Assembly: GCA_050950165.1 (NCBI GenBank)
Contig: JBMNHC010000001.1
Coordinates: 389,738 to 453,737, forward strand
DNA length: 64,000 nucleotides
Direction of reading: 5' to 3'
Source of the DNA: Candidatus Dojkabacteria bacterium
GTDB taxonomy: Bacteria; Patescibacteriota; Dojkabacteria; SC72
The notes beneath the pieces were generated by a model, which saw only the letters and a program-made list of their open reading frames with translations, was not told where the DNA came from and did no database searches. A program made the translations under genes and the position numbers. Of this stretch, positions 1 through 19,487 are shown in pieces; position 1 is the first letter of the stretch; each line of letters starts with the position of its first letter.

Positions 1-3000
1 AGGAGAGAGAACTGTAATACTTGCTTTCTGATTTGTTATTCCTGATACAGAGAGAGCATATTTCTTATTATTTATACTTGTTGCCTCTGTAACCTTGGCT
101 GTTGTAATAACGCCGTCTTCTTTAATCTTAAATCCATTTGCAGCTAAGGTGTCATCTTTTAGAGGTTCAGAGAATGTTGCATGAAAGATGATAGGTTGTT
201 GATTAGTTGGATTTGACTGTTCAGTTGCTGGTACAATCGAAGTAATGTATGGAGGTGTAATATCAATTATTAATTGACCTGTAATCTCACTACTGTTTTG
301 AGTAGAATCCGTAGCAGTTATTGTTAAATTGTATGTATTTGTTGTAAGGCTATTAATGTCTCCTGCAGATACAGTCCAAGTACCATTTTGGTTGTTTGTT
401 GCATTGATTATCTGTCCAGTTTCTTCAATCTTAACTGTTACAGTAGCATCTTTATCATTAACCGTCCCTGTAAGTTCAGGAGATGGATTATTTGTACTTA
501 AATCCTCGTATCCTACAACAGGGGGAATTGTATCTTTTGTAAGGTTTTTTGTATCATCTCCCTTATTTCCAACATCATCTGTTTGTGATGCATAGACAAT
601 GACTGTTCCATCTGGTTGGGCTGATAGATCTAGTTCAGTACTCCAAGTACTATCAGCTAGACATTCTGTTGAATAAGATTGTTCTGTGACAACTATAGTA
701 ATATTACCATCTCCAGCGGTACATGTACCCCCTAGGGTATAGTGAGCTCTATTTGCTCTGTTTATCGGTGTTGTACTGGTAATTAATACTTTTGGTGCAA
801 TTCTATCAATAATATATCCTTCTTTAGTTTCAGTAATACTATTTCCTGCTTTGTCTGTTGCCTTTATAGTAAGATCACCAGATTCTATGATTGTTATAGT
901 ACAGTGTATGATATTGTGATCTCCAGCATCAGGAGTACATTCTAAATTCTCAGCCATTCCTGTTGAACTTGCAGCTATCTCAATACCACCAGGATGTATT
1001 TCAATATTATCTGTTACAGTAATTGTAGTATTAGTAATATTATCCTTTTTCTTCTTGGTAGGGGCATTGATAGTAATTACAGGGTCAACAGTATCAATTG
1101 TATACATGTGTGTCTCATATCCCGTAGCACCATTAGTTGTATCCTGAGCAGTCACCATTATCATACCACTGTTTTGAATACCTAAGATCTCGCAAGTAAC
1201 GGTAGTGTCATACGGTGCAGTAGTTTTGTTGTTTCTATCTGTACAAGTTCCAAGGGTAACACCATCAGATGCTGAGCCAGAGATAACAATGTTATCAATT
1301 TCATGTCCATCGATAGGGGCGGTAATGGTTACAGTTGTATCATCAATTGCTTGGTTACTAAGGATAGTAGGGGCATTGAATACTACATCTGGAGGGAAAA
1401 CAGTTTGTTTTAATGTAGCATTTCCTACTAGGTCATATGCAATAATTTTAACAGTATGTTGAGGTTCATGAGGGTCAAGGTGAAGAGTTCTTGTTATAAC
1501 TCCAGGTTCTGTATATATTATCTCATCAATAGTCTCAGTTGTTGAAACACCTTCCCCTTCGTTGTCTTTGATATATACTATTTCATATCTTGCTACACCA
1601 ACTGCATCAAAAGCTTCAAAACTAACAACTGGTCTGTGTAAACCATGTGTTGTAGTATCAACATTTGATGTAATGAAAGTAGGGCTAGTAGTATCAATGA
1701 CATATCCATCTTTGAAAGCTGTAGAGCTTAGACCAGAATCATCAGTAGCTTTAAGAACCAATTTACCAGAGGTATTGATAGTAATTGTACAGTTAAGTGT
1801 CAATTTAGTACCAGGAGAATCATTGATAAATGGGAAATTGTCTGATGTGCTAGAACCTGATTCTACTGTACAGGCAATGCCACTAGCTGTAGCTATACTA
1901 GAAGAATCCACCTCTACATTTTGTATTGTGTAGTAATCACTTACAGTAAAAGTAGTATCAGTAATTGGGGCATTTGACATCATAGTCTCCCCAGGAGTAA
2001 TTGTTATTTCAGGAGGAGAATCATCAACATCTAATACGGTTATTATAAAAATCTTCTCGCTGGAAAGGTCGGTAGCATCAGTTGCTCGGACTCTAATAGT
2101 GTATTTATTTTTATTATCTGGATCATTTTCTGGATCACCGTGACCTTGTGGATCTTCATAGTCAGGAGCTTGTGAGAATGATAGTAATCTAGTATCAGAA
2201 TTAAAAGTGAATTTTGAGTTATCTTCACTACCTTCACCAGGCACAAGAGAGTAGGTAATTGGAGGTCTTTCAGAGTCTGACGAAATAGTACCAACTTCTG
2301 TTGTATTTTCTTCGACTTCATAGTTATCTATTCTTAAATTTTGTGGTGGACATCTTTGACCGGCATCTGTAATATTCCAGCCATCCGTAGTCATTAGCTT
2401 ACTTCTTGCATCTCCTGCATAACAGTAGTAAACTCCCACTGCGCTAAAGGTTCGGTTTGGCTTTACAGTTTTTTTACTCCATGCATCTAGCAAATTATCA
2501 TAATTGTAGTATTGCATATTAGAAGCATTTAAGAATTGAGTAAAGTATTCAACTTTACCAACATCCCAATTAGATATGTCTTGATTAAACCCAGAAGCAC
2601 GATCAAACATACGCGCCATATTTGTAACATTTGTCGTATTCCAATTGCTACCAAACGGTTGATTGAAAACAGTAGCGTAATTAAACATACATGCCATACT
2701 TTGAACCTTAGTAGTATTCCAGTTTAGAGGCTTGCTCTCATCACCAGGCTCAGCGCCATTATTAAAAACATTAGCATTTTGAAACATATACGACATGTTT
2801 TCAACATTTGTTGTATCCCAATCACCGATATATTGATTAAAGCTTCTAGCTAGCCTAAACATATTTGACATGTTTTTTACACCTGCTGTATTCCATTTAG
2901 GGCCAAACGGTTGATTAAAATCTCTTGCTACAAACGCGGAATACATATTAGTAACCTCTGGTATTTCCCAATTTAAAGGAATATTACTACCACCCGCAAC

Positions 3001-4707
3001 GTCACCGTTATTAAAAACTATCGCTCCATTAAACAGATGCATCATACTTTTAACTTTTCTAGTATCCCAGTTATTAAGATTTTGATTGAAGGAACTAGCG
3101 CCCATAAACATACCCATCATGCCAGTTACATTGCTAGTATCCCAAGAGCCGATTTTTTGGTTAAATGCTCCAGCTTTATAAAACATATATGTCATGTCAC
3201 CAACATTTTTGGTATCCCAATTCATAGTATTATGACTTTCACCTGGTGCTTCACCATTATTAAAATTAGTGGCTTCATTAAACATATTTGACATGTCCGT
3301 AACATTGCCAGTTTGCCAACTACTAAGATTTTGATTAAACGCACTAGCATATCTAAACATTCTGAACATATTTTTAACTTTTGAAGTGTTCCAACTATTT
3401 AAAGAATTACTACTTCCGCCCGGCTCGTCACCATTATTAAAATTAGTGGCTTCATTAAACATATCTGACATATCCGTAACATTGCCTGTTTGCCAATTAC
3501 TCAGATTTTGATTAAACGCACTAGCCCCTCGAAATATATGTGCCATATTTTCAACATTTGCTGTATTCCAATTACCAATATCTTGATTAAAACTCTTGGC
3601 GTCTCTAAACGCATACCCCATATTTTTAACACTTGCTGTATTCCAATTATCGCCAAACGGTTGATTAAAAGCTTCAGCCCCATAAAACATATATATCATA
3701 TATTGAAGTTTTGCACTGCTCCAATTTATAGTGTTATGGCTTTCACCCGGTGCCTCACCGTTATTAAAAGCAGCAGCATTAAAAAACATACCACTCATAT
3801 ATCCAACATTTCCTGTATTCCAATCACCAATCTTTTGATTAAACGCACTAGCCCCTTGAAACATATATGTCATGTCACCAACATTTTTAGTATCCCAATT
3901 CATAGTGTTATGGCTTTCACCTGGTGCTTCGCCATTATTAAAATTAGTAGCTCCGTTAAACATGTAAGACATATTGGTAACCGCACCAGTATTCCACCCA
4001 CCAATGTATTGATTAAAGCTTCTAGCATCTCGGAACATAGAAGCCATATTTTTAACTTGGCTAGTATTCCACCCACCAATTGGAGAGTTAAAATTAGTAG
4101 CATCCTTAAACATGCTATTCATATTGGTTACATTGCTAGTAACCCAATTATTCATAGATGAATTACCAGTAAAATTTGTGGCACCTTCAAAAGCAGAACT
4201 CATATCAGTCACTGCTGATAAATCAGGAATATCACTAGCAGTTAGTTGCATATTTTTCATGCCTATAAAAGCTGATGCGAAACTTGACCAGGGAATAGTA
4301 CCCCATTGTTTGATTTCTTGAAGTTTAGCTCTTTCATCAGCAGCTAAATCAAGAGCATAGAAGTGGAGTGGGGCTGTTGACCTAACACAAATGTCATAGG
4401 TACCAGCCTCACCATAATCATAACTAACTCTATTACTAGAAACTGGTAGGAAATCGTCATTACAATACCAAGAGACTTCATATTCATCAGTGGCGTTTTT
4501 TAGAAAGTTTAGAGTAACTTTAGTTGACTCAGTAGCTCCCTCTACATTAGTTGTCCAACTAGTAACAAACAGATCAGAAGAGTAGGCATGGGTTGGAAAA
4601 TTCCTGTTTTTAATTAAAAAGATTGTAAAAACGATAACTAACAAAGGAGTAGTTAGTAAAAAGAATATTCTCTTCACATGTGAGTATCGGACAGTTCTCC
4701 CAATCAT
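1..4707 (-). CDS. Giant surface/adhesin-like protein with DUF285 (BspA-like, ~26-residue) repeats and Ig-like/Big domains; partial, C-terminus continues past the window start
   Basis: The minus-strand reading frame is open from the ATG at 4707-4705 to position 1. The N-terminus MIGRTVRYSHVKRIFFLLTTPLLVIVF is signal/TM-like and paralogous to the N-terminus of ORF 6264..9302. About 13 repeats of the pattern xxMFxxAxxFNQxIxxWxTxNVxxMxxMF follow, then Ig-like repeats (PPxxTIxxP). The start codon overlaps the TGA stop of the upstream ORF by 1 nt. This ORF is absent from the supplied track because it has no stop in the window. Confidence 0.8.
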   Translation of the reverse strand, partial: MIGRTVRYSHVKRIFFLLTTPLLVIVFTIFLIKNRNFPTHAYSSDLFVTSWTTNVEGATESTKVTLNFLKNATDEYEVSWYCNDDFLPVSSNRVSYDYGEAGTYDICVRSTAPLHFYALDLAADERAKLQEIKQWGTIPWSSFASAFIGMKNMQLTASDIPDLSAVTDMSSAFEGATNFTGNSSMNNWVTSNVTNMNSMFKDATNFNSPIGGWNTSQVKNMASMFRDARSFNQYIGGWNTGAVTNMSYMFNGATNFNNGEAPGESHNTMNWDTKNVGDMTYMFQGASAFNQKIGDWNTGNVGYMSGMFFNAAAFNNGEAPGESHNTINWSSAKLQYMIYMFYGAEAFNQPFGDNWNTASVKNMGYAFRDAKSFNQDIGNWNTANVENMAHIFRGASAFNQNLSNWQTGNVTDMSDMFNEATNFNNGDEPGGSSNSLNSWNTSKVKNMFRMFRYASAFNQNLSSWQTGNVTDMSNMFNEATNFNNGEAPGESHNTMNWDTKNVGDMTYMFYKAGAFNQKIGSWDTSNVTGMMGMFMGASSFNQNLNNWDTRKVKSMMHLFNGAIVFNNGDVAGGSNIPLNWEIPEVTNMYSAFVARDFNQPFGPKWNTAGVKNMSNMFRLARSFNQYIGDWDTTNVENMSYMFQNANVFNNGAEPGDESKPLNWNTTKVQSMACMFNYATVFNQPFGSNWNTTNVTNMARMFDRASGFNQDISNWDVGKVEYFTQFLNASNMQYYNYDNLLDAWSKKTVKPNRTFSAVGVYYCYAGDARSKLMTTDGWNITDAGQRCPPQNLRIDNYEVEENTTEVGTISSDSERPPITYSLVPGEGSEDNSKFTFNSDTRLLSFSQAPDYEDPQGHGDPENDPDNKNKYTIRVRATDATDLSSEKIFIITVLDVDDSPPEITITPGETMMSNAPITDTTFTVSDYYTIQNVEVDSSSIATASGIACTVESGSSTSDNFPFINDSPGTKLTLNCTITINTSGKLVLKATDDSGLSSTAFKDGYVIDTTSPTFITSNVDTTTHGLHRPVVSFEAFDAVGVARYEIVYIKDNEGEGVSTTETIDEIIYTEPGVITRTLHLDPHEPQHTVKIIAYDLVGNATLKQTVFPPDVVFNAPTILSNQAIDDTTVTITAPIDGHEIDNIVISGSASDGVTLGTCTDRNNKTTAPYDTTVTCEILGIQNSGMIMVTAQDTTNGATGYETHMYTIDTVDPVITINAPTKKKKDNITNTTITVTDNIEIHPGGIEIAASSTGMAENLECTPDAGDHNIIHCTITIIESGDLTIKATDKAGNSITETKEGYIIDRIAPKVLITSTTPINRANRAHYTLGGTCTAGDGNITIVVTEQSYSTECLADSTWSTELDLSAQPDGTVIVYASQTDDVGNKGDDTKNLTKDTIPPVVGYEDLSTNNPSPELTGTVNDKDATVTVKIEETGQIINATNNQNGTWTVSAGDINSLTTNTYNLTITATDSTQNSSEITGQLIIDITPPYITSIVPATEQSNPTNQQPIIFHATFSEPLKDDTLAANGFKIKEDGVITTAKVTEATSINNKKYALSVSGITNQKASITVLSP
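3183..3950. repeat. Near-identical intragenic DNA repeat units (~90-140 bp) inside the DUF285 repeat region of gene 1
   Basis: Segments 3183-3320 and 3861-3950 are nearly identical (catatatgtcatgtcaccaacattttt[g/a]gtatcccaattcatagt[a/g]ttatg[a/g]ctttcacctggtgcttc[a/g]ccattattaaaattagt...). Segments 3251-3350 and 3421-3520 are also nearly identical. Both pairs encode FNNGEAPGESHNTMNWDTKNVGDMTYMF-type units. Confidence 0.7.
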
Positions 4708-6065
4708 CACTCTCTCTTCTTCTCTTTATATATTTTATACCCTAGTAGTATTGCTAGTAGAACAATCAGTGCAATTAACCAGTAAACATAGTTTGGTGTA
4801 GTTACTTGTTCCAACTTTATATTAATCTCCATCTCTTCTTCTCCATCATTAATTAAGTTAATCTCTCTTTCTGATCTATACCCGTTGTATGAAATAACCA
4901 TTGTATGTAAACCAGTATCTAGATTTTCAAAATATACCTCTCCATTTTCATCAGTAATACCTGTTCTAATATCAGAGTGTATTTCAATAGTTGCACCTTT
5001 AATAGGTCTGTGTTGTTTGTCATATACCTTTACTCTTAAGTTCTTAGATTGAGTAGAAGAAGTAGGCTCTTTAACTGTATCTGAAGTATCGTCGGAAGTT
5101 TCTTCTTCCATCTGTTCTATTACAGAGGCGAAATATTTAGTAAATGGATTCCTTGGTTTTCGTATTACTGGTTGTGGGACTGGTGGTGTTATGACGGAGG
5201 GGGGAAGTACAAAGTACATTATACTATTATCCGTAAAGGTACTAGCCTCATTTAAATTACCAGCCATATCTGCAATTCTTCCAGCAGGTAAAATGAGTCT
5301 TACTGTTTCTCCAGATAGCATACCAGTTATAAATACTGTATATGTAGTATTATTAACCTTTACTATTTGAGATACCCTAGCTGTACTACTACCTAAAATA
5401 TCTAGCTCTCCCTTGTAGAAAGAAGTTACATTTACTGGTTCGGAGAAAACAGCTGTAAATTTTATTGGTTCTGTATGTGCAGGATCTGTTTGACCTTTTG
5501 CTTGATTAATTGTCACAGTTGGTGGAGTGGTATCGTATGTAACAGAGTTGTCGGTAAAGGTACATATGAGGTTGTCATTTCCAGCAAGGTCTGTAACTGA
5601 CCCTGCAGGTAGTCTTGCAACTACAGTATCTCCATCTGTTAAGTTATTTACTTCAATTTCATACCTTTTATCACCAATGTTTGTAATACTTTCTACTTGG
5701 GCAGTACTACTTCCTAAGAGTAGTACTTTCCCTTTTGTAAACGTAGCTTCATTAATAGTCTCGGAGAAAATAACTAAGAATTTTATAGAATCTTCATTAG
5801 TAGGATCACTTTGTGTTGGTGATTGATTAACAGAAACAGTTGGAGGAGCTGTGTCTTTCTTTAATGTTGCTTCTGCATTCCCTTCGTTTCCTACAGAATC
5901 TGTTTGTTTTACTGCTACAGGAATATCTCCATCAGGGTAGGTGGAAAGATCTAGAGGTAGGGTCCATCTATTTTCATTACATGTTGCTAAGTATGGTTGT
6001 GTAATCATGATGACAATTGGGTCTTTATCACCAGACGTGCATCCACCTGATAGTGTGTAGCTCAT
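4707..6065 (-). CDS. C-terminal fragment of the second giant DUF285 surface protein: Ig-like repeats, CarboxypepD_reg-like domain and a C-terminal TM anchor. Same frame as ORF 6264..9302.
   Basis: Supplied ORF. Repeated motifs TPPTVxxNQ...TxPIxFxxxFSE are Ig-like. The stretch LRVKVYDKQHRPIKGATIEIHSDIRTG...YNGYRSEREINL is a carboxypeptidase-regulatory-like fold. The hydrophobic tail YVYWLIALIVLLAILLGYKIYKEKKRE is a TM anchor. It is homologous to the corresponding region of gene 1..4707. Confidence 0.75.
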   Translation of the reverse strand: MSYTLSGGCTSGDKDPIVIMITQPYLATCNENRWTLPLDLSTYPDGDIPVAVKQTDSVGNEGNAEATLKKDTAPPTVSVNQSPTQSDPTNEDSIKFLVIFSETINEATFTKGKVLLLGSSTAQVESITNIGDKRYEIEVNNLTDGDTVVARLPAGSVTDLAGNDNLICTFTDNSVTYDTTPPTVTINQAKGQTDPAHTEPIKFTAVFSEPVNVTSFYKGELDILGSSTARVSQIVKVNNTTYTVFITGMLSGETVRLILPAGRIADMAGNLNEASTFTDNSIMYFVLPPSVITPPVPQPVIRKPRNPFTKYFASVIEQMEEETSDDTSDTVKEPTSSTQSKNLRVKVYDKQHRPIKGATIEIHSDIRTGITDENGEVYFENLDTGLHTMVISYNGYRSEREINLINDGEEEMEINIKLEQVTTPNYVYWLIALIVLLAILLGYKIYKEKKRE

Positions 6066-6263
6066 ATGATTGTTTAAGTTAACTTTTGCAGGAGAATCTA
6101 TTGATACTTCAGGTGCAATTTTGTCAACAAGAAAGTCATCTACGAACCCTGTGGCAGTGTTATCAGCTTTATCTTTAGCTTGAATGACTAGTTTACCCGA
6201 GCTTGTAATTGTTAGAGTACAATTTACTATGGACTTATTATTATCATCAGTATCACAGAGTAA

Positions 6264-9200
6264 TTAGTCATTCAATACATCAACAGTTGTATCTGAGTGT
6301 ATTGTGATATCGTCTGCAAAAAGATCAACCCCATCAGTAACTGTAATTGTGACATCAGTGATATCGCTGTTACTTGATTTGGTAGGTGCAGAGATAACTA
6401 TTTTTGGAGCCTCTGTGTCATGGAAATATTTTTGTAAATTCATCCCTTCATATATCTGTTCAGAGGCATCTTTTTCCTTAGCATGAACTTCAAGCATACC
6501 AGTCTCTTGAATACCGTGTATCTGGCATTCTACAGAAGTAATGTAAGGGAAAACTGGAGTCTCATCTATGTTGTCATCTTTATCTTTACAGTTGCGAAGC
6601 TGTGCTCCGGAAGCGGCTGCACCTCGGAGGTCAATATCAGTAATGATGTTGCCTGGAGTGGATGTAGTAATTTTTACAGTTGTATTATTGATAGGGTTTC
6701 TACTAATTATGGTAGGAGCAGTTATTTCAATTGTTGGTGGGAAATAGATTCTTCTGGATGTGTAGTTATCGGTATTGTCATACGCCTTAATTTCTATTGA
6801 ACGAGGAACCTGATGAGGATCTAAGTCGATCTCATCGTAGGAAAGTGTTCCTGGACGATCTTCAATTGAAATGATTGTGGCTTCCTCTGATACACCCTCT
6901 CCGTCATTATCTTTAAAGAAAATGATTTCATATCTCTGTATTCCTGTAGGGTCTTCAGCTTTAAAGGAAACACTTGGATTATCTATACTGTATGGTGTAG
7001 CAGTATTAACATTGGCTACAGTAAAGGTTGGACCAAATGTATCAATGATATATCCAGGCTCTTCAGCAGTAGTAGTGTAACCTGCTTCATCAGTAGCATA
7101 AAGGACTAAGCTACCAGAGGTGGTAATGGTGACCTTACATCTTATAGTTAAATGGTTTGTAGGGTCAGGTTCATCACATCTATATGGGAAATCTGGTGAT
7201 GATGTGTTTCTTACTCCCCAACACTGGATGCTATTAGGCTGAATGGCAGCAACACTTGATGTATGTAATCCTACTGATTTAATTGAGAATCTATCACTTA
7301 CTTCAAACTCTGTATCCGTTATATTCCCCTTGTTTTTCTTAATCCCTGGGTAAATTGTAATAACTGGTCCTACATCATCAATATCGTTGACGGTAATAAC
7401 GAAGACTGCTTCCGAGTACTGTTTAACTACATCAGTGACTCGTACTCTAATGGTATATTTGTTTCCATCTTCTGGATCAGCTGAACCTTGTGGGTCTTCA
7501 AAGTCAGGTGGTTGTGAGAATGCTAATAGTCCAGTAGATGAGTTAAGAGCAAATTTAAGATTGTCTTCACTTCCTTGCCCAGGAACAAGGGTGTAGATTA
7601 GAGATGAAGTCTCTTCGTCTTCTGCAGTGATAGTGCCTACCTCTGTTGTATTTTCATCAATCTCTGTGTAGTCCAAATCTATATTAAATGGAGGACAGTT
7701 TTGACCAGCATCATTGATAGTCCAAGTGTAAGTAGTACTTAACTTGTTCCTAGCTGTTCCTGCATTACAGTAGTAAACACCATCTGCACCGAATGTTAGA
7801 CCCAATTTGACATTTTGTTCACTCCAACTGTTCAATAGCCTGTCATAGTTATCTGATACTAGTCCAGAGTCGCTGAGAAAGAGATCAAAATTTGTAACAC
7901 CTCTAACATTCCAAGTTGATATGTCTTGATTGAATGCCTTTGCGTTGTTGAACAAAGAGCTCATATTACTAACCTTTGAGGTATCCCAATTTCCAATAGG
8001 TTGGTTAAATGAGGTTGCACCTTTAAACATATCTGACATAGAGGTAACTCCTGATGTCACCCAATTGTTAAGAGGTTGATTAAAAGCTACAGCTCCTTCA
8101 AATAGTTTGCTCATAGTATATACCTGAGATGTATTCCAACTGTTAAGTGGTTTGTTGAATGAAGAGGCACCTCTAAACATACTTGCCATATCTCTTAGTC
8201 TGTTAGTCTCCCAAGTACTAATATCTTGGTTAAACGAAGTAGCTAAAGAAAACATAGCTGTCATGTAAATAACCTTTGATACATCCCAATCACCAATTGG
8301 TTGATTGAAATTAGTAGCCCCAGCAAACATACCTGACATATTCGTTACATTTCCTGTTTTCCATTTCTTAATATCTTGGTTAAAAGCTGTTGCACTATAG
8401 AACATGTATCTCATGTTGTTGACATTTGAAGTATTCCATTCCCCTATGGGTTGATTAAAAGCATTGGTACTACCAAACATATATGACATATCTTCAACAT
8501 TTTTAGTATCCCAATTCTCAATATTTTGATTAAATGCTCTAGCTACATAGAACATACAATTCATATTTGTAACATTTCCAGTATTCCAACCCCCAATATT
8601 TCGATTAAATGATTGAGCGTTCCTAAACATTCTTGACATATCAGTTACATTGTCAGTATCCCAGCCACTAATGTCTGCATTGAATTTACCACTATTCTCA
8701 AACATACTTTTCATATTAGTCACATTGATGGTATCCCAAGAGTTCATAGAATTGTTTCCAGTAAAGTTTTGGAGACCACCGAAAGCACCAGACATATCTG
8801 TTACTCTTGACAGATCAGGTGCATCAGAAGCAGTTAACTGCATATTACCCATACCCCAGAAAGATGATGCAAAACTTGACCATGGAATGGTACCCCACTG
8901 TTTAATCTCTAATAGTTTTGCTCTTTCATTTGCAGATAAGCCTGTAGATTGGAAAGATATTGGATAGATAGTCTGTATACAAATTCTATAAGTACCGGGT
9001 GTTTGAAAGTCATGAACGACTTTGTCATAATAAATCACTTCATCAATAGAGCCATTACATTCCCAGTCAACTTCATAGCTACCTGTTGCTCCTGTTAACT
9101 GGAAGTTTAAGGTAACTGTTGAATCAGTTGGATCAGTTATATTAGTTTGCCATTCGGTTACGAATAGATTAGGGGCATAGGCATAGGTTTTAAAAGGATG

Positions 9201-9302
9201 TTTTTTAACAAGGAAGGTAGTAAACCCAGCAACTAGAAGAAGGGTAGTCAAGATTAAGAGAAATCTTTTTGTATATGAATGTTGGACAGTTTTTGTAATC
9301 AT
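6264..9302 (-). CDS. N-terminal 1012-aa portion of the second giant DUF285 surface protein, ending at an in-frame TAA; probably an interrupted gene or pseudogene
   Basis: Supplied ORF. It has an N-terminal signal/TM and about 14 DUF285-type repeats (FNQDISxWxTxNVTNMxxMF), then Ig-like domains. The 198 nt between its TAA (6264-6266) and the next ATG (6065) are stop-free in the same frame and encode sequence homologous to gene 1. Confidence 0.8.
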   Translation of the reverse strand: MITKTVQHSYTKRFLLILTTLLLVAGFTTFLVKKHPFKTYAYAPNLFVTEWQTNITDPTDSTVTLNFQLTGATGSYEVDWECNGSIDEVIYYDKVVHDFQTPGTYRICIQTIYPISFQSTGLSANERAKLLEIKQWGTIPWSSFASSFWGMGNMQLTASDAPDLSRVTDMSGAFGGLQNFTGNNSMNSWDTINVTNMKSMFENSGKFNADISGWDTDNVTDMSRMFRNAQSFNRNIGGWNTGNVTNMNCMFYVARAFNQNIENWDTKNVEDMSYMFGSTNAFNQPIGEWNTSNVNNMRYMFYSATAFNQDIKKWKTGNVTNMSGMFAGATNFNQPIGDWDVSKVIYMTAMFSLATSFNQDISTWETNRLRDMASMFRGASSFNKPLNSWNTSQVYTMSKLFEGAVAFNQPLNNWVTSGVTSMSDMFKGATSFNQPIGNWDTSKVSNMSSLFNNAKAFNQDISTWNVRGVTNFDLFLSDSGLVSDNYDRLLNSWSEQNVKLGLTFGADGVYYCNAGTARNKLSTTYTWTINDAGQNCPPFNIDLDYTEIDENTTEVGTITAEDEETSSLIYTLVPGQGSEDNLKFALNSSTGLLAFSQPPDFEDPQGSADPEDGNKYTIRVRVTDVVKQYSEAVFVITVNDIDDVGPVITIYPGIKKNKGNITDTEFEVSDRFSIKSVGLHTSSVAAIQPNSIQCWGVRNTSSPDFPYRCDEPDPTNHLTIRCKVTITTSGSLVLYATDEAGYTTTAEEPGYIIDTFGPTFTVANVNTATPYSIDNPSVSFKAEDPTGIQRYEIIFFKDNDGEGVSEEATIISIEDRPGTLSYDEIDLDPHQVPRSIEIKAYDNTDNYTSRRIYFPPTIEITAPTIISRNPINNTTVKITTSTPGNIITDIDLRGAAASGAQLRNCKDKDDNIDETPVFPYITSVECQIHGIQETGMLEVHAKEKDASEQIYEGMNLQKYFHDTEAPKIVISAPTKSSNSDITDVTITVTDGVDLFADDITIHSDTTVDVLND

Positions 9303-9554
9303 AATCTCAAAATGTTAGGTAATAGTATACTGATTTTATCTATCAATCTTCTACCTTCTTTATTGCATTAGAGTTTATATATTAAGCATTCTCTATACTT
9401 AATACCATAGTATATCTTTCGTTATTATTCAAGCCCAAATTTTAAGTTTTGGGTATACAACAAGAGAGTTGTCTAGTATGATTAAAGGTAATAGCAATGG
9501 AGAGGCGAGAATGTAGTAGTTTTCATCTCTATATCTAACTTTTTTATACCCCCT

Positions 9555-10829
9555 ATGAAAAAAGAAAAATCTCAAGAGTACATATTTCCAAAAAATTTCT
9601 ACTGGGGAGCTGCTACTGCTAGTCATCAAGTAGAGGGAAATAATTATAATGATTGGAGTGAATGGGAGAAATCAGAGAAAAGAATTAATGATTTAAAGAA
9701 GAGTGGATTACTTGATAAATATGGACAAGATAACTTCATATCAGGTAGAGGAGCAGACCATTACAACAAGTATAAGGAGGATTTTAAACTAGCAAAAGAA
9801 TTAGGTCATAATGCTACAAGATTTTCCATTGAATGGTCTAGGATAGAGCCAGAAGAAGGAAAGTTTGATCAAAAGGCAATTAATCACTACAAAGATGTTA
9901 TAAAGAGATTAAAAGAATTAGATATTGAACCATTTGTAACTCTTTGGCATTGGCCGATACCGATCTGGTTGAGGGATAAGGGGGGATTAAAATCATCTGA
10001 GATGCCAAAATACTTTGTTAGATATGCTAAGAAGGTAGTAGAGGCATTGGGAGATGATGTTAAGTTTTGGATTACACTTAATGAGCCATTGGTAAATACT
10101 TCAATCTCTTATATACAAGGGATATGGCCACCACAAAGAAAGAATCCTTTTGTTTTTCTTAAAGTTAATCTTAATTTACTAAAGAGTCATAAACTTACAT
10201 ATACTGCTATAAAGGAGATTAATCCAAAAGCTCAAGTAGGTATAGCGAAACATAATGCATATTTTAGTATCAAGGGTAATTATTTAATTAATAAGGGTAT
10301 TAAATCTCTTGTAGATGCTTTGTGGAATCATTTATGGTTACGGTGTATTAGAGATCATCAAGACTTTATTGGTCTAAATCACTATTTCCATCATAGGATT
10401 CTTTATGGCTTAGGTAAGAATGAGAGGAAAATTATTAACCATATGGGTTGGGAGATATATCCAACATCTCTCTATCACTGTCTTAAAGATTTAAAGAGGT
10501 ATAACAAGCCAATATATGTTACAGAGAATGGTTTAGCAGATGCTAAGGATGAGAAGAGAACATGGTTTATCTATGAAATGCTTAAAGGGGTTCATAAGGC
10601 AATAGAAGAGGGTGTTGATGTAAAAGGATATTTACATTGGTCTCTGATGGATAATTTTGAATGGGCTGATGGATATTGGCCAAGATTTGGTTTAATAGAG
10701 ATAGATTATGATACTCTTGAGAGGAGACCTAGAAAATCTGCATACTTTTACAGAGATATCTGTAAGAGTAATGGAATAACCTCATCAGTAGTAGAAAAGT
10801 ATAAAGAAGAGATAGAGAGATTTTCCTAA
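9555..10829 (+). CDS. Glycoside hydrolase family 1 beta-glucosidase/beta-galactosidase
   Basis: The N-terminal GH1 signature FPKNFYWGAATASHQVEG is present. The catalytic acid/base motif is ITLNEP and the nucleophile motif is YVTENG. The length of 424 aa is typical of GH1. Confidence 0.85.
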   Translation: MKKEKSQEYIFPKNFYWGAATASHQVEGNNYNDWSEWEKSEKRINDLKKSGLLDKYGQDNFISGRGADHYNKYKEDFKLAKELGHNATRFSIEWSRIEPEEGKFDQKAINHYKDVIKRLKELDIEPFVTLWHWPIPIWLRDKGGLKSSEMPKYFVRYAKKVVEALGDDVKFWITLNEPLVNTSISYIQGIWPPQRKNPFVFLKVNLNLLKSHKLTYTAIKEINPKAQVGIAKHNAYFSIKGNYLINKGIKSLVDALWNHLWLRCIRDHQDFIGLNHYFHHRILYGLGKNERKIINHMGWEIYPTSLYHCLKDLKRYNKPIYVTENGLADAKDEKRTWFIYEMLKGVHKAIEEGVDVKGYLHWSLMDNFEWADGYWPRFGLIEIDYDTLERRPRKSAYFYRDICKSNGITSSVVEKYKEEIERFS

Positions 10830-12248: not shown

Positions 12249-13022
12249 TTAACCAATATTCTTGAAGCTGACATCTAAATATTTAACTATATAATCAAAA
12301 AAAGAAGCCAAATTCTCCCTCTCTTTTCTAGGCACAAAAGGAGCTAAATCTTTTACAAAGTTCTTCTTGGAGAACAACTTTATCCTTTCTTCTAAAGTAT
12401 TTGAATCTATTTTCTTAATATCATAGTACTTAAGCTTCTTGGTAACCAAGTCATCATTAAACTTTGCTCCAAGCTCTAGTAATATCCATAAATCATATAG
12501 ATCTCTATGCTTTACCCTTGTCATTACAGCCCTTATCTTCTCTGCAAATATCTCATCTATACTTAAGGTATTTACAAAACTTTGGAAGATAACAGGATAC
12601 TCGGTTTTTAGAATACTTTGCTTTGGTTCTAAAACTTGTTCTCTAGTAGAGAAATCTAGTTTGATATATACCTTGCTCTTTAGAAAAGGAACCTCTGCTG
12701 TCAAAAGATATGTATATCCTATTATCGATTTCCTCTCCTTTATCTTAAAAGTATATATGTTTTCTAAATATTGAAAGAATGAGAGTATCTTCTCTTCGAA
12801 TTCTTCCTCTGGCATATTTACAGTGAAATCTAAATCCTCTGAAAATCTATGTCCTCCCCATATTAATCTGATTGCAGTGCCTCCCTTAAAAAAGATATTT
12901 TTAGAGAAATTTTGTTCATACAATTCTTTTAGAAAGAGTATCTGTACAAACTCTCTTACTACGACAGAGTTAGATATTTGAAATTTTTTTGATAGTTGTT
13001 TTACTTGTTGTTCTATTATCAT
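12249..13022 (-). CDS. AbiEii/AbiGii-family nucleotidyltransferase (type IV toxin-antitoxin / abortive infection toxin)
   Basis: The N-terminal motif FFKGGTAIRLIWGGHRFSEDLDF matches the nucleotidyltransferase motif of AbiEii/DUF1814 proteins. Size is 257 aa. The gene overlaps the upstream AbiEi-like gene by 4 nt (ATGA). Confidence 0.75.
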   Translation of the reverse strand: MIIEQQVKQLSKKFQISNSVVVREFVQILFLKELYEQNFSKNIFFKGGTAIRLIWGGHRFSEDLDFTVNMPEEEFEEKILSFFQYLENIYTFKIKERKSIIGYTYLLTAEVPFLKSKVYIKLDFSTREQVLEPKQSILKTEYPVIFQSFVNTLSIDEIFAEKIRAVMTRVKHRDLYDLWILLELGAKFNDDLVTKKLKYYDIKKIDSNTLEERIKLFSKKNFVKDLAPFVPRKERENLASFFDYIVKYLDVSFKNIG

Positions 13023-13609
13023 AGATATTGAGATATTAAAAGTTTAATTGATTTCCTAAGCCTCTTTGGTAGGAGGTATATATATTTTTCTACTTCCCTT
13101 TTTTTAATATTTGTATAGTCCATTTCATTTAGATACTCTGCATTTTTTTTCTTTAGGGCTATCATGTAGAGTTGATCAAAGAGAGCTTTTTCTGGATATG
13201 CCATGAGACAGTTACCTAGTTTGTAATATCCAGTATATATTTGCTTACTTATCTTCGTATATGTGTATGTTTTGCCCAATATTTCTTTACTTTTGCTTTT
13301 CTTTGTCGTAGCTGAAATAATTTCAAATGGAAACTGACTTAAAATTCCATGATAGTTAAGAGCAGTTTCAAAGGAGATGTATGATGGAGAGTAGAGGAAT
13401 TGAGATATTTCAAAGTCTGTGATATTTGAATCTGTTAGTATGTACTTACCTTTTTCTAAAGGAGTTATTACTTTTGTATCAATTAGTTTCTTTATTCTGT
13501 TTTCTAATGTTCTTTGAGTATTGATTCCTAAGATTTGTGATATATCTTTAGTAGTAAAGAGCTTTTTATCACTTTTAAGAAACAAATTTACAATGTTTAT
13601 CAGTTCCAT
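13019..13609 (-). CDS. AbiEi-family antitoxin/transcriptional regulator (winged HTH N-terminus)
   Basis: A 196-aa protein with an N-terminal HTH-like segment (TTKDISQILGINTQRTLENRIKKL) sits immediately upstream of, and is translationally coupled to, the AbiEii-like gene. Its own promoter carries a palindromic operator. Confidence 0.65.
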   Translation of the reverse strand: MELINIVNLFLKSDKKLFTTKDISQILGINTQRTLENRIKKLIDTKVITPLEKGKYILTDSNITDFEISQFLYSPSYISFETALNYHGILSQFPFEIISATTKKSKSKEILGKTYTYTKISKQIYTGYYKLGNCLMAYPEKALFDQLYMIALKKKNAEYLNEMDYTNIKKREVEKYIYLLPKRLRKSIKLLISQYL

Positions 13610-13657: not shown

Positions 13658-13800
13658 AGGAGATTAATTTTGCGAAAAAATGAAGGCTGTACATATTGTT
13701 GCTCCTTTCTCCATTCCGTGATATACTCGCTCTGTTAGCAATTAATATTAGTCGTATGTCTATCCAGCTAACAGGAAGACATCACCAAAGGATTAACCCT

Positions 13801-15021
13801 ATGGCACAGACAAAAAAGCAAACAGAGAGTTCTGCTATGTACTCTCAAATAGATGAATTTCTTTCAGATAGCAAACATCAGATAAAGCAACTTGCAAGAG
13901 GAGATATTGTAGAAGGAGAAGTTGTAGATATTAACAATGGAATAATCATTGTAGATGTTGGGTATAAGTCTGAAGGAATAGTTGCAGGAAAAGAGCTTAA
14001 AAGTGATACATTAGATTGGACAACTCTAAAACAGGGAGACAAGATCTTAGTGTATGTTGTTAAACCTGAAGATGATAAAGGACAGTTAGTACTCTCAATT
14101 AGAAGAACACAGCAAGCAAGTGCATGGTTAGCATTAGAGAATGCTAAAAAGAACAATGATATCGTAGAAGCTGTAGTAGTAGAATCTAATAACGGGGGAT
14201 TAATTGTTGAGATAGGGAAAGGAATTAGAGGCTTTATCCCAACTTCTCAGCTAGATGCAACAAGGGTATATGCAGACGGTGTTAGACAGGTAGGTAAAGA
14301 TATCTCCTCTAGGGTACAGAAAAGACTTAACTCTTTAATAGGGGAGAGTATTAAAACTAGAATCATTGAATTAGATAGAGAGAAAAACAGAATAATTCTT
14401 TCAGAGAAAATGGTGACACAGGCAAGAGATTTAGAGAAGAGGGCACAGACCTTAAAGAAGGTAAAGGAAGGAGATGTACTTGAAGGAACAGTTAGTGGTA
14501 TTACCCCATTTGGTATCTTTGTTAATGCACAAGGTTTAGAAGGACTAGTGCACCTTTCTGAGCTTTCATGGGATAAAGTGGAAGATATTGGAGCAATATA
14601 TTCTGTAGGAGATAAAGTTGAGGTAATGGTAATAGGGTTGACAGATGGTGGAAAGAGAGTTGCATACAGTGTAAAAAGGTTACAGCAAGATCCATGGTCT
14701 ATGGCAATTTCTAAGTTTAAAGTCGGAGATATTGTAGATGGAGAGGTACAGAAGGTTGTTCCATACGGAGCATTTGTTAGAATTGGAGAGGGTCTAAATG
14801 GTCTAATTCATATCTCAGAGCTTTCAGACAAACTAGTTAAGAATCCTGAAGATATTGTAAAGACAGGTCAGAAGGTAAAGGTAAAAATTCTTTCAATATC
14901 TTCTACTGAAAGACACTTAGGATTAAGTCTTAAGGCAGCACAGACACCAGCACAGAAACAGCTAAGTGAGGAGCAACTCTCAGAGGCAATAGATGCTGCG
15001 ATAGATGCAGAGATAAAGTAA
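13801..15021 (+). CDS. rpsA: 30S ribosomal protein S1 (four S1 domains)
   Basis: S1-domain motifs recur (GDIVEGEVV..., GxV..I..fGaFV). The supplied ORF starts at 13696, but an extended -10 (TGaTATACT, 13719-13727) places the transcription start after 13696. The ATG at 13801 (MAQTKKQ) has AAAGGA upstream. Confidence 0.8.
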   Translation: MAQTKKQTESSAMYSQIDEFLSDSKHQIKQLARGDIVEGEVVDINNGIIIVDVGYKSEGIVAGKELKSDTLDWTTLKQGDKILVYVVKPEDDKGQLVLSIRRTQQASAWLALENAKKNNDIVEAVVVESNNGGLIVEIGKGIRGFIPTSQLDATRVYADGVRQVGKDISSRVQKRLNSLIGESIKTRIIELDREKNRIILSEKMVTQARDLEKRAQTLKKVKEGDVLEGTVSGITPFGIFVNAQGLEGLVHLSELSWDKVEDIGAIYSVGDKVEVMVIGLTDGGKRVAYSVKRLQQDPWSMAISKFKVGDIVDGEVQKVVPYGAFVRIGEGLNGLIHISELSDKLVKNPEDIVKTGQKVKVKILSISSTERHLGLSLKAAQTPAQKQLSEEQLSEAIDAAIDAEIK

Positions 15022-15033
15022 GAGATATTCTAA

Positions 15034-15059
15034 AGAGGGGTATTACTACCTCTCTTTTT
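15034..15059 (+). terminator. Rho-independent terminator after rpsA
   Basis: Hairpin agaggggta-ttac-tacctctct, followed by TTTTT. Confidence 0.6.
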
Positions 15060-15067
15060 GGTATAAT
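15059..15067 (+). promoter_or_regulatory. Extended -10 promoter TGGTATAAT for clpC, 5 nt upstream of the ATG (near-leaderless)
   Basis: The sequence tggtataatagggtATG is directly visible. Confidence 0.45.
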
Positions 15068-15072
15068 AGGGT

Positions 15073-17544
15073 ATGAAGAAAGCAATAAGTAATCACATAT
15101 TTTCTAGGTTAAGCCGTAATGCAAAAATATCCATTAGAAATGGAGCTACCATATCTGAGTATTTAAAGAGTAGTTCTGTTCAGCCAGAACATATATTGGT
15201 AGGAATACTTTTGAATGAAAATGCACTAGCTACTAAGATTGTTCTTTCAATGGGGCTTAATATTGAGGAGATATTAAGTACGATACTTAAGGGCTCTACA
15301 TTGGATATAGTGGCAGATAGTAGTTTGCCTAAAGAGGTTAAGTTTTCCAAAGATTCGCAGATAGTACTTAGAAAGGCCTTCGATTGGTCACAGAGATACT
15401 CCCATGTATATGTAGGAACAGAGCATTTAATGTTAGCACTTTTGGAATCTACGGACCTGTTTATAAAGGATTTGGCTAAGCACGGTTTTGAGATAAAGAG
15501 ATTTCAGAAACATCTAGCTGAATATGCTACATATCCATTAGGGATACTTGCTAAGCCAGAGATAACAGGACAGCAGGTTCAGAGAGGAAGTCTCTTGGGA
15601 GTAATAGGTAGAGACTTAGTAGCATTAGCAAAGGAGGGTAAACTTGATCCACTTGTAGGTAGAGAAGATGAATTAAACAATATGGTAAAGATACTTAGTC
15701 GTAGAAAGAAGAGTAATCCGATAATTGTGGGAGATGCAGGAGTAGGAAAGACTGTATTAGTAGAGGGTCTTGCTCAGATGATAGCGGATGGTACCGTACC
15801 TCCATCTTTAAGAGATATGAGAATAGTGTCACTAGATGTAGCTAGTATAATGGCAGGTAGTAAAATGAGAGGTGATGTAGAAGAGAAGGTTTTGGATATT
15901 GTAAATGAGGTAATAGAGTCTACAAATATAATTCTTTTCATAGACGAAATACATACAATTCTAACTTCTTCTCTTCCTGGGGGAAACTCTGAGATAGCGT
16001 CAATATTAAAGCCTGCTTTGCTAAGAGACAATTTTAGATGTATTGGAGCTACAACAACAGAAGAATATTCTGCATACTTTGAGAGTGATAATGCTTTGGC
16101 TAGAAGATTTCAAACAATATTTTTAGAGGAGCCTACAATAGAGGAAACGATTCAGATATTAAAGAATCTAAGACCCATTCTGGAAGCACATCATAGGATT
16201 AGAATAAGTGATGAGGCATTAGAGTTAGGGGTATCACTTTCTGATAGATATATTAGTGATAGATATCTACCAGATAAAGCGATAGATCTTTTAGATGAGG
16301 CTAGTGCTACTAAGAAGTTAAGTATAGATGGTAAATATGAGGAACTTTCATCTTTGGCTTCTAAGCTAAGAGGTATTCAAGGGGCTAAAGAAGAGTACAT
16401 CATTAAGGGTGATATGGAGTTAGCTGCCAAACTTAAAAAGGAAGAGATATCTCTTAAAAAGAAGATATCTACTTTAGAAAAGAAGAGAGCAGAGGCAAGA
16501 AAGAGAAAGAGTAGTGTGGTGAATATAGATGATATTAGAAAAGTGGTATCAGATTGGACAGGTATTCCTCTTAATACATTAGGCTCAAAAGAGAAGAGTA
16601 CTCTTCTTAAGTTAGATGAGAAGATTAATGAGTCTGTCATTGGGCAGAAAGAGGCAGTAGCAGGAGTTGTATCAGCAATTAAAAGAGCAAGAGTAGGAAT
16701 ATCTGATGAGAGTAGGCCTTGGGCATCATTTCTCTTTTTAGGACCTACAGGTGTTGGTAAGAGTGAGTTAGCAAAGGTTTTAGCAAAAGAACTTTTTGGT
16801 AATGAGGATAAATTAGTGCAGATAGATATGTCTGAGTTAATGGAGATGCACAGTGTTTCTAAATTGATAGGGTCTCCTCCTGGGTATATAGGGTATCAGC
16901 AAGGTGGTTGGTTGACAGAACAGGTTAGAAGAAATCCACATAGTGTGATACTTTTTGATGAGATAGAGAAGGCTCATCCAGATGTACTAAATATATTACT
17001 TCAGATTTTAGAGTATGGGCATCTAACAGATGGTAGGGGTAGGAAAGTAAATTTTAAGAATACAATAGTAATATTAACATCAAATATTGGGGCAGAAGCG
17101 ATAGGTAGAGATAGAGTGTTAGGGTTTTCTAGAACAAGAAACAAGGAGGAGAAGAAGAGTGCTGAACAAGCGTACTCTACAATGAAATCTGAGCTTCTTA
17201 AAGAGCTTAGAAAGACATTAAGGCCTGAGCTTCTAAATAGGTTAGATGATACTGTAATTTTTAGAGCATTAAGTACTAAAGATGCAAGAAAGATAGTAGA
17301 GATTTTGGTAGATGAGTTAAATGAAAGGATTGGTAATCAGGGATACAAGGTTTTGCTTTCTAAACCTCTTCTTTCATACATAGTTAAAGAAGGGTTTAGT
17401 CAAGAATATGGTGCTCGTCCACTAAGAAGGGTATTACAAGACAGGGTAGAGAGTAAGTTAGCCGACCATATCTTAAGAAAAGGTGATGAGGGAGGGGTAA
17501 TAAAGATGGATTTTAAGAAGAATCGTATAGTTATTAATTCTTAA
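15073..17544 (+). CDS. clpC: ATP-dependent Clp protease ATP-binding subunit ClpC (two AAA+ modules, Clp-N domain, LGF ClpP-docking loop)
   Basis: Clp-N repeats are present. Walker A motifs are GDAGVGKT (D1) and GPTGVGKS (D2). The middle domain is short and the LGF loop (RVLGFS) is present. Total length is 823 aa. Confidence 0.85.
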   Translation: MKKAISNHIFSRLSRNAKISIRNGATISEYLKSSSVQPEHILVGILLNENALATKIVLSMGLNIEEILSTILKGSTLDIVADSSLPKEVKFSKDSQIVLRKAFDWSQRYSHVYVGTEHLMLALLESTDLFIKDLAKHGFEIKRFQKHLAEYATYPLGILAKPEITGQQVQRGSLLGVIGRDLVALAKEGKLDPLVGREDELNNMVKILSRRKKSNPIIVGDAGVGKTVLVEGLAQMIADGTVPPSLRDMRIVSLDVASIMAGSKMRGDVEEKVLDIVNEVIESTNIILFIDEIHTILTSSLPGGNSEIASILKPALLRDNFRCIGATTTEEYSAYFESDNALARRFQTIFLEEPTIEETIQILKNLRPILEAHHRIRISDEALELGVSLSDRYISDRYLPDKAIDLLDEASATKKLSIDGKYEELSSLASKLRGIQGAKEEYIIKGDMELAAKLKKEEISLKKKISTLEKKRAEARKRKSSVVNIDDIRKVVSDWTGIPLNTLGSKEKSTLLKLDEKINESVIGQKEAVAGVVSAIKRARVGISDESRPWASFLFLGPTGVGKSELAKVLAKELFGNEDKLVQIDMSELMEMHSVSKLIGSPPGYIGYQQGGWLTEQVRRNPHSVILFDEIEKAHPDVLNILLQILEYGHLTDGRGRKVNFKNTIVILTSNIGAEAIGRDRVLGFSRTRNKEEKKSAEQAYSTMKSELLKELRKTLRPELLNRLDDTVIFRALSTKDARKIVEILVDELNERIGNQGYKVLLSKPLLSYIVKEGFSQEYGARPLRRVLQDRVESKLADHILRKGDEGGVIKMDFKKNRIVINS

Positions 17545-17560
17545 TTTAATATTTTTACTA

Positions 17561-18907
17561 ATGAGCTATATTTGTTCAGTATGTGCAACAGAATATCTTA
17601 AATGGTCAGGTAAATGTAATACATGTGGGCAGTGGGGTACCTTAGAAAAGATTGAAGAGAGTACTCAAGTAGTAGGTACATCTGTAAGTAAAACTAAAAA
17701 AGCAGACTATAAGGCTATTACCAAATATAGAGAGAAGGCCCCTAGTAAAAGAGGCGCGTCTAATCGTATTAGTTCAGGCTATTTAGAATTTGATAGAGTC
17801 TTGGGCGGTGGCTTTGTAGAGGGTAGTGTAGTTTTACTTAGTGGTGAGCCTGGAGTGGGCAAATCTACACTCTTGTTGCAGATAGCATTAAATCTTTCTT
17901 CTGATAAAAAGATTCTCTATGTATGTGGTGAAGAGTCTCCAACTCAACTTCTTTCTAGATTAGATAGGCTCTCTGGTAAGGGTGGTAAAGTAGAAAATAT
18001 CTTTGTTACTAGCGATGTGGTAGTAGAGAGCATATTTGCTCTTGTTGAGAAAGAGAGATTTGATCTTTTAATTGTGGACTCAATACAAAGTATGAGCTCG
18101 GAAACATCTAGAGGATATCCTGGGAGTATTAGCCAGGTTAGGGCATCAGGAGCAATATTGACTAGATTAGCAAAGTCAACGGGAATACCAACAATACTTG
18201 TAGGGCAGATAAATAAGGGGGGAGATATTGCAGGTCCTAAGATATTAGAACATATTGTAGACTGTGTACTCTACATTGAAGGTGGAGAGTTTAATCAGTA
18301 CAGGTTGTTAAGGGGTATGAAGAATAGGTTCGGCTCTACTAATGAGATAGGGGTTTTTGAGATGAGCTCTAGTGGATTGATGGAGGTAGGGAATCCTTCT
18401 TTGCTTTTCTTAGATAGCAAGTCCAATGTATCAGGTAGTGCAATAGGGGCTGTAATACAAGGTTCTAGAGTTGTATTTGTAGAGGTACAAGCACTAGTTG
18501 TAGAAAGGTCTGGAGAAGCAGGTCCGTTAAGAAGAGTCGCAAATGGTATTAAGAAGCCTCGTTTAGATATGCTTACTGCTGTTCTTTCTAGAAGAGGAGG
18601 GGTATTTTTAGGTGATAAGGATGTTTTTGTAAATGTAGTAGGAGGTATTAATATTTCTGATCCTGCAATAGATTTAGCAATATGTGCGGCTATTAAATCA
18701 GCAGTAAAAGATAATGTTTTAGATAGAGATTCTATATATTTCGGAGAGGTTGGTCTTACAGGAGAGATTCGTGGTACATGGGGATTGCAATCGGTTCTTT
18801 CAGAAGCATCAAGGGTAGGGTACAAGAGGATATATATAGGAGATACTCCTTTAAAAAGTGTACCAAAGATAAATGTGTCTGTAGTAAAGGGTATTAAGAA
18901 GTTATAA
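17561..18907 (+). CDS. radA: DNA repair protein RadA/Sms
   Basis: There is an N-terminal C4 zinc finger (CSVCATEY...CNTCGQWG), a RecA-like Walker A (GEPGVGKST), a KNRFG motif and a Lon-like C-terminal domain. The clpC-radA order matches Firmicutes-type synteny. Confidence 0.9.
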   Translation: MSYICSVCATEYLKWSGKCNTCGQWGTLEKIEESTQVVGTSVSKTKKADYKAITKYREKAPSKRGASNRISSGYLEFDRVLGGGFVEGSVVLLSGEPGVGKSTLLLQIALNLSSDKKILYVCGEESPTQLLSRLDRLSGKGGKVENIFVTSDVVVESIFALVEKERFDLLIVDSIQSMSSETSRGYPGSISQVRASGAILTRLAKSTGIPTILVGQINKGGDIAGPKILEHIVDCVLYIEGGEFNQYRLLRGMKNRFGSTNEIGVFEMSSSGLMEVGNPSLLFLDSKSNVSGSAIGAVIQGSRVVFVEVQALVVERSGEAGPLRRVANGIKKPRLDMLTAVLSRRGGVFLGDKDVFVNVVGGINISDPAIDLAICAAIKSAVKDNVLDRDSIYFGEVGLTGEIRGTWGLQSVLSEASRVGYKRIYIGDTPLKSVPKINVSVVKGIKKL

Positions 18908-19063
18908 TTTTTTTTGACAAATACCATCCACAAAACGCGTAAAGTTTTAAATATTTTTTACCAATCGTAACCTGTATTTTCCCAAAAGGAGAAAGATTGT
19001 TGTAAGAATGGGAGAATGTCTTGGTTGTCGAAAAGAGCTCTCACGTGGATATCTTTTATAGGC

Positions 19064-19093
19064 TTGACATACGATTGTCATAGGGGTTATAAT
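19064..19093 (+). promoter_or_regulatory. Strong sigma70-type promoter (TTGACA - 18 nt - TATAAT)
   Basis: TTGACA at 19064-19069 and TATAAT at 19088-19093. Confidence 0.6.
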
Positions 19094-19099
19094 ATCTCG

Positions 19100-19358
19100 T
19101 TCTTTAATATCTTATGTGGATATCTTACCTTTCTCCCTTTGTCTGGGGTGCCACGAACACATCTGGACAAAAGGAAAAGGGTAGGATACTCTTAGTTTCT
19201 CTCTCCCTGGGTTTGGTCTTAAAATAGTTCTGAACCTAAGGAAAGGGAGATTGAGGGAAGCATAAGTATGCTCTTCGATATTAGCCTTCTTTTGATTAAA
19301 AAGAAGGATAACACCGGGGTCGGTTGGGGCAGTACCGATCCCTCTTTTTTTTCTTTTT
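19100..19358 (+). ncRNA. Candidate small transcript (sRNA or mRNA for a 37-aa peptide) between radA and rho, bracketed by the consensus promoter and a strong intrinsic terminator
   Basis: No ORF of 50 aa or more lies on the + strand. The only candidate is a 37-aa ORF at 19118-19231 (MWISYLSPFVWGATNTSGQKEKGRILLVSLSLGLVLK) with no SD. The supplied minus-strand ORF 19112..19366 runs antisense through the terminator. Confidence 0.3.
19316..19358 (+). terminator. Rho-independent terminator (9-bp GC-rich stem plus U-run)
   Basis: GGGGTCGGT-tggggcagt-ACCGATCCC, followed by tcttttttttcttttt. Confidence 0.7.
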
Positions 19359-19367
19359 AATCTCATA

Positions 19368-19396
19368 TTGACTTCTTAAAATTCTTTGAATATACT
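19368..19396 (+). promoter_or_regulatory. rho promoter (TTGACT - 17 nt - TATACT)
   Basis: TTGACT at 19368-19373 and TATACT at 19391-19396, downstream of the terminator and upstream of the rho start. Confidence 0.5.
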
Positions 19397-19487
19397 GAAT
19401 AGTCAAATGGGTTAAATGCCCATCTATGTAATTTCCCAATTTATTCATATGGTAAACAAAACAAAGACTATAAAAGAGTACGAGAGT

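Follow-up and report, generated by a model that had tools for sequence, protein, structure and literature searches.

Premature stops in a leucine-rich repeat surface protein are familiar from the inlA truncation alleles of Listeria monocytogenes, which turn up repeatedly among many sequenced isolates and whose phenotypes have been measured. Another relevant group, the BspA-like/DUF285 'PARCEL' proteins, is defined by palindromic nucleotide repeats, such that the reverse strand encodes a similar repeat, and horizontal exchange of PARCEL genes has been reported (Roske et al. 2010, PMC2996958). Here we describe a BspA-like/DUF285 gene in a metagenome-assembled genome (MAG) of an uncultured Candidatus Dojkabacteria bacterium. 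The gene lies on the minus strand of a 64,000-nt stretch of contig JBMNHC010000001.1 (the window), is followed by a tandem paralogue, probably codes for a giant cell-surface protein with a putative adhesin function, and is interrupted by one in-frame TAA. This stop goes back to a single-base change, sits in the middle of a domain, is absent from relatives, and is accompanied by no secondary lesions. The explanation that we favor, with a probability of about three in four, is a recent C-to-T nonsense mutation, i.e., an ordinary young truncated allele or nascent pseudogene of the giant surface-protein gene.

Translated in one frame, the gene runs to 1532 codons, with codon 1013 as the sole internal stop and TGA as the terminal one. 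This confirmed the starting point of an initial annotation, made by a model from the sequence alone, that two same-frame open reading frames (ORFs) are separated by a single TAA and 66 sense codons. The view that the two form a single gene also stood, given that homologues span the junction, whereas the length proposed for the protein (~1480 aa) did not; the reconstructed product has ~1530 residues (1012 + 1 + 518). The sequence at the stop is ...GTA TTG AAT GAC TAA TTA CTC TGT GAT.... At the base composition of the window, stop-free runs of the lengths seen would arise by chance with P ~0.009 for the 66-codon bridge and P ~1e-16 for the whole 518-codon downstream part. The bridging peptide aligned contiguously with residues 1255-1383 of the tandem paralogue (42% identity over 129 aa, E = 9e-31), as had been claimed, and the paralogue itself shows no interruption up to the window edge (Table 1). 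The product of the upstream ORF is an exact match to NCBI entry MGI6423370.1 on a 724,554-bp contig, named 'MAG: BspA family leucine-rich repeat surface protein [Candidatus Dojkabacteria bacterium]'. The annotation thus calls for correction: the 1012-aa NCBI protein and the next ORF are two pieces of one ~1530-codon gene.

A homologue search with the junction-spanning, non-DUF285 part of the protein gave 49 matches. The best 16 were 1355-1585 aa long, and 11 of these 16 covered 99-100% of the query, i.e., they cross the junction. At least 16 homologues (1355-1598 aa) are uninterrupted there, and the window gene is colinear with BspA/DUF285 surface proteins of 1421-1538 aa from other Candidatus Dojkabacteria, with no gap at the junction. 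The best match, P0001 (1538 aa), had 87% identity to the junction-spanning query and was colinear with the whole reconstructed gene at 88% amino acid identity. P0051 (1534 aa) and P0052 (1538 aa), which belong to the same cluster as P0001, share the ...DTTVDVLNNQLLCDTDDNNKS... junction, all three proteins reading ...VLNNQLLC..., and these intact alleles occur on contigs of about two dozen sample assemblies. In a codon alignment, the window TAA stands opposite CAA (Gln) in two orthologous loci, L002 and L006, the difference being a single C>T transition; the changed base on the plus strand is 6266, which is A in the window and G in the relatives. Among the causes that the initial annotation had listed, recent pseudogenisation or truncation is therefore favored by the three nearest alleles (P0001, P0051, and P0052), which read CAA.

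Several comparisons with P0001 bear on the age of the mutation. Between codons 838 and 1049 just 14 codons differ, and the first 36 residues after the stop are identical, with three codon differences that are all synonymous. The ratio of nonsynonymous to synonymous divergence (dN/dS) was 0.24 upstream of the stop and 0.20 downstream. No second stop or frameshift was found in the 518 downstream codons, although 4% of the possible single-base changes would give a stop. Neither the relaxed selection nor the secondary lesions that mark an old pseudogene were thus seen, which suggests either that the lesion is young or that the region is still under selection. Because the downstream codons have no second lesion and a dN/dS value of 0.20 vs. 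0.24, the mutation seems likely to be young, even relative to a few per cent of neutral divergence. P0002 and P0007 were considered as outgroups to polarise substitutions onto the window branch and were dropped; the gene is a mosaic and over much of its length both are closer to P0001 than the window gene is.

In order to place the stop in the fold, the orthologous segment of P0001 (residues 928-1207, 280 residues) was modelled with AlphaFold2 from a 17-sequence alignment. The mean predicted local distance difference test (pLDDT) score was 87 for the segment and >90 across the immunoglobulin-like (Ig-like) domain that holds the stop. This domain is modelled with seven strands (42-46, 56-64, 74-76 / 90-93, 100-107, 111-118, 124-134), and the stop, at model position 88, falls between strands 3 and 4; the model thus puts the break away from any domain boundary. 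The first downstream ATG (6065) corresponds to model position 155, inside the next domain and just ahead of its first long strand (157-162). The column of the stop is variable in the alignment (Q, D, P, K, N, G) but has a sense residue in 17 of 17 sequences, and an invariant Cys follows three residues on.

If the change from CAA (Gln) to TAA at codon 1013 acts as an ordinary nonsense mutation, ribosomes would be expected to terminate there. The product would have 1012 residues, keeping the targeting segment and the DUF285 head, ending in half an Ig-like domain, and losing the rest of the stalk, CarboxypepD_reg, and the anchor at the C terminus. Translation would most likely not extend to the 518 downstream codons, and the change would be too recent for decay to have set in there. 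The mutation could also affect the paralogue, whose ATG shares one base with the TGA of the interrupted gene (4709..4707; TGATG), an arrangement that is also present at the orthologous loci L002 and L006. Because of this overlap the paralogue is likely to be translationally coupled to the interrupted gene. Given the overlapping start codon and a Rho gene in the window (19416..20714), termination 1.55 kb early could also lower paralogue expression via polarity.

The domain architecture proposed initially was borne out by Pfam, which found DUF285, Big_3_3, Big_12, and CarboxypepD_reg (Table 1). The tandem DUF285 repeats exceed the Pfam gathering score by a wide margin (PF03382, 420.8 bits vs. 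a cut-off of 25). The N-terminal hydrophobic segment is probably a signal peptide or a membrane anchor; its cleavage is uncertain because a Pro comes directly after the AYA motif. Together with the C-terminal transmembrane segment, also recognized by inspection only, it would supply the membrane targeting expected of a BspA-like/DUF285 surface protein.

Table 1. Features of the interrupted surface-protein gene and its tandem paralogue (window coordinates)
Feature	Position	Strand	Remarks
Whole interrupted gene, BspA/DUF285 surface protein	4707..9302	-	1012 codons + TAA + 518 codons + TGA; one-frame translation
Upstream ORF	6264..9302	-	1012 aa; ATG start
N-terminal hydrophobic segment, residues ~13-32	9207..9266	-	RFLLILTTLLLVAGFTTFLV; read by eye from the translation
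DUF285 (BspA-like / PARCEL) repeats, residues ~125-480	7863..8930	-	Pfam PF03382, E = 3.8e-128, 4 stretches
Cadherin-like domain, residues 547-638	7389..7664	-	PF00028, E = 6e-4; weak, under the Pfam cut-off
Ig-like beta-sandwich cut by the stop, codons ~965-1060	6123..6410	-	AlphaFold2 model of the P0001 segment
Premature stop TAA, codon 1013	6266..6264	-	Minus-strand codon
Bridge, remainder of the interrupted Ig-like domain	6263..6066	-	66 stop-free codons; LLCDTDDNNKSIVNCTLTITSSGKLVIQAKDKADN...
Downstream ORF	4707..6065	-	452 aa from the first ATG (6065..6063); same frame as the upstream ORF
Big_3_3	5652..5969	-	Pfam; in the downstream ORF
Big_12	5241..5534	-	Pfam; in the downstream ORF
CarboxypepD_reg	4812..5039	-	Pfam; in the downstream ORF
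C-terminal transmembrane segment + basic tail	4737..4790	-	Seen in the translation by inspection
Tandem paralogue, DUF285 + Ig-like (Big_13 in Pfam)	1..4707	-	ATG 4707..4705; open for 1569 codons up to the window edge

The nonsense mutation has to be weighed against a consensus or sequencing artefact, or a minority polymorphism in a population whose dominant allele is intact (CAA). We consider this unlikely, while giving it some weight. A 5602-bp Logan contig (SRR31061296) is 100% identical to window 4892..10493, TAA included, and passes through the site unbroken, so that not one base differs over 5.6 kb between two different assemblies, the NCBI MAG and the Logan contig. SRR31061295 contains the same strain, as shown by 100% identity to a 3.6-kb part of the window away from this site. 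The identical Logan assembly makes an assembly error less likely, and the lesion, a substitution, lies in non-repetitive sequence away from any homopolymer or tandem repeat. What speaks for an artefact or polymorphism is that the lineage was seen in one project, with no further copy of the allele in the collections searched, and that the downstream part shows no decay. Searches with the junction patterns of the window allele found no other copy in GTDB representatives or JGI metagenomes, a 15-billion-protein collection added nothing to the NCBI and Logan records, neither the 452-aa ORF nor the neighboring GH1 protein had an exact match, and no mention of the sequencing run or protein accession was found in the literature. 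Three points weigh against a young nonsense allele: the TAA rests on consensus sequences, probably of one project and possibly of the same reads; the allele of the window lineage was found in only one assembly; and a pairwise downstream dN/dS of 0.20 is equally expected under continued function.

Continued function could take the form of a gene split, in which an N-terminally anchored DUF285 protein is made together with a separate C-terminal protein that starts at ATG 6065. The intact downstream frame and its dN/dS value of 0.20 agree with such a split, and since the genome apparently uses little or no Shine-Dalgarno pairing, initiation without it is possible. The absence of a Shine-Dalgarno motif before ATG 6065 is accordingly a weak test, there being almost no such motifs anywhere in the genome. 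We nevertheless regard a split as improbable, because the break is in the middle of an Ig-like domain, with ATG 6065 inside the domain that follows, and no relative is divided at this site. No minus-strand promoter-like site was found between 6065 and 7350, where there are fewer such sites than in shuffled sequences. The translated 452-aa product has no N-terminal hydrophobic segment or export signal, which would keep its Ig-like and CarboxypepD_reg domains from being exposed on the cell. The independently expressed, cell-anchored C-terminal fragment that the initial annotation had allowed for found no support in this promoter search, in the translation, or in the position of its start inside an Ig-like domain.

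A similarly improbable reading is that the truncation is adaptive. After horizontal acquisition, a doubly anchored giant adhesin would have been turned into a short DUF285 head, N-terminally anchored or shed, and Rho-dependent polarity on the translationally coupled paralogue could have retuned the whole surface-protein pair. If true, this could serve, e.g., phage escape or a change in host attachment. In a weaker variant, low-level UAA read-through may yield short and long isoforms.

Programmed read-through or local recoding of TAA, giving the full-length protein at a regulated level, can be given hardly any credence: although the in-frame stop is located in a variable loop tolerant of any inserted residue and precedes a preserved frame, it is conserved in no relative (17 of 17 aligned homologues have a sense residue there), is followed by T, which makes the context that terminates most efficiently according to E. 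coli studies (TAA-T), has around and after it 151 nt of RNA that fold no better than shuffles (z = -0.51), and is of the kind that ends 27 of the 35 window genes (TAG, 6; TGA, 2), with no UAA-reading tRNA (UUA anticodon) among the seven in the window. Read-through, as suggested initially, is therefore unsupported, and an alternative genetic code was rejected on the same stop usage and tRNA set of the window. Systematic in-frame stops were rejected as well, because the two other same-frame pairs in the window split by one TAA proved to be unrelated genes (Rho/M23 peptidase and MreB/MATCAP). Phase variation was rejected because the lesion is a base substitution and 5900..6600 contains no tandem repeat. 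Read-through, recoding, phase variation, and clean fission are thus all disfavored by a mid-domain stop in a variable loop, in a TAA-T context, with no associated RNA structure, repeat, or promoter, in a genome region where TAA is the main stop codon.

The premature-stop allele of itself matters little, being one more in a large, fast-evolving surface-protein gene of a MAG. The mobility of the locus is a more interesting lead. To compare divergence, the adhesin pair (window 1..9302) was set against flanking genes (13696..20714) using the loci L002, L005, and L009. When the window is compared with L002, Rho, RadA, ClpB, and S1 in the flanks are saturated at synonymous sites (synonymous divergence, dS, 1.5-2.0), with amino acid identities of 53-83%. 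The interrupted adhesin, on the other hand, has a dS of only 0.30, with 95-99% nucleotide identity over codons 719-1050, and the paralogue a dS of 0.55. The same contrast was found between L002 and L009 (flanks, dS 1.5-2.1; adhesins, 0.49 and 0.74). Relatedly, P0001 and P0002 have 100% nucleotide identity in codons 1306-1531 (~225 codons) but only 59-77% in codons 779-1065. That the adhesin pair is mosaic and far less diverged than the flanking genes indicates that the adhesin locus is a cassette apparently exchanged or recombined recently between deeply diverged Dojkabacteria lineages. The contrast suggests that deeply diverged lineages of these putative episymbionts may exchange surface-protein cassettes, in which case the truncated allele would capture one moment in the turnover of such a locus.

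Other features of the locus and its relatives deserve mention. Codons 792-816 of the adhesin (6900..6930) have eight clustered nonsynonymous differences from P0001, mostly G/A and charge-changing (E/D/G in the window vs. K/N/R in P0001), in surroundings that are 95-99% identical; this may be a diversifying patch. Between the adhesin and S1, the segment 9555..13609 encodes a GH1 glycosidase, an AAA_14/DUF4143 ATPase, and an AbiEii toxin (12249..13022), the last adjoined upstream by a 196-aa ORF (13019..13609) that has no Pfam match. Since the adhesin directly abuts S1 in L002-L004, the GH1-AbiEii segment looks like an insertion or rearrangement beside the cassette. Homologues at L010 (3483..7833) and L011 (5186..9868), both on low-coverage ENA contigs (coverage 6 and 2.3, respectively), are frameshifted into two to four pieces, which could reflect recurrent pseudogenisation or assembly error.

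Elsewhere in the window, ComEC (34538..36869, plus strand) is spread over two ORFs in different frames with a 44-nt overlap, one with DUF4131 and Competence domains (509 aa) and the other with Lactamase_B (281 aa). As a Logan contig from SRR31061295 reproduces the split exactly, it is not the error of a single assembly, which leaves a natural split or a genuine frameshift. The segment 24989..33148 (plus strand) encodes a further giant pair of surface or tail-fibre-like type: a 1788-aa protein, whose residues 1141-1196 form an internal Peptidase_S74 (endosialidase chaperone) domain, ends in TAG TAA, and a same-frame ATG at once begins a 929-aa Laminin_G_3 protein. Shine-Dalgarno motifs are nearly absent throughout the window, and several genes (e.g., at 15073, 43462(-), 46508, and 49753) have a TATAAT or TGnTATAAT box. 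The position of these boxes just 2-12 nt ahead of the ATG suggests leaderless or very short-leader mRNAs.

Among described systems, the giant adhesins SiiE of Salmonella and MpIBP of Marinomonas have tandem Ig-like extender domains, which the model of the stalk segment matches (Foldseek E = 1e-6 to 5e-6 vs. 4p99, MpIBP, and 2yn3, SiiE), the resemblance being one of fold only, with ~16% sequence identity and low global template modelling (TM) scores of 0.33-0.44. Unlike SiiE and MpIBP, the window protein has no RTX or type I secretion signature and would apparently be anchored by its terminal transmembrane segments. With respect to the lesion, the window gene would be analogous to the Listeria inlA alleles, in that a point nonsense mutation costs the protein its C-terminal anchoring region but still allows the N-terminal binding domain to be translated; it differs from them in that only one allele, from one uncultured lineage, is concerned. 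With respect to family, the window protein resembles the PARCEL proteins of Roske et al. (2010, PMC2996958) in its DUF285 match, its membrane-targeting segments, its NCBI name, and its signs of horizontal exchange. PARCEL-type palindromy was checked only by a Pfam search of the antisense ORFs 3490..4161, 8650..8967, and 1562..1933, which gave no DUF285 match. Unlike in PARCEL proteins, the DUF285 repeats are followed by a very long Ig-like stalk, complete with CarboxypepD_reg and a transmembrane anchor at the C terminus, and the gene belongs to a Patescibacteria genome.

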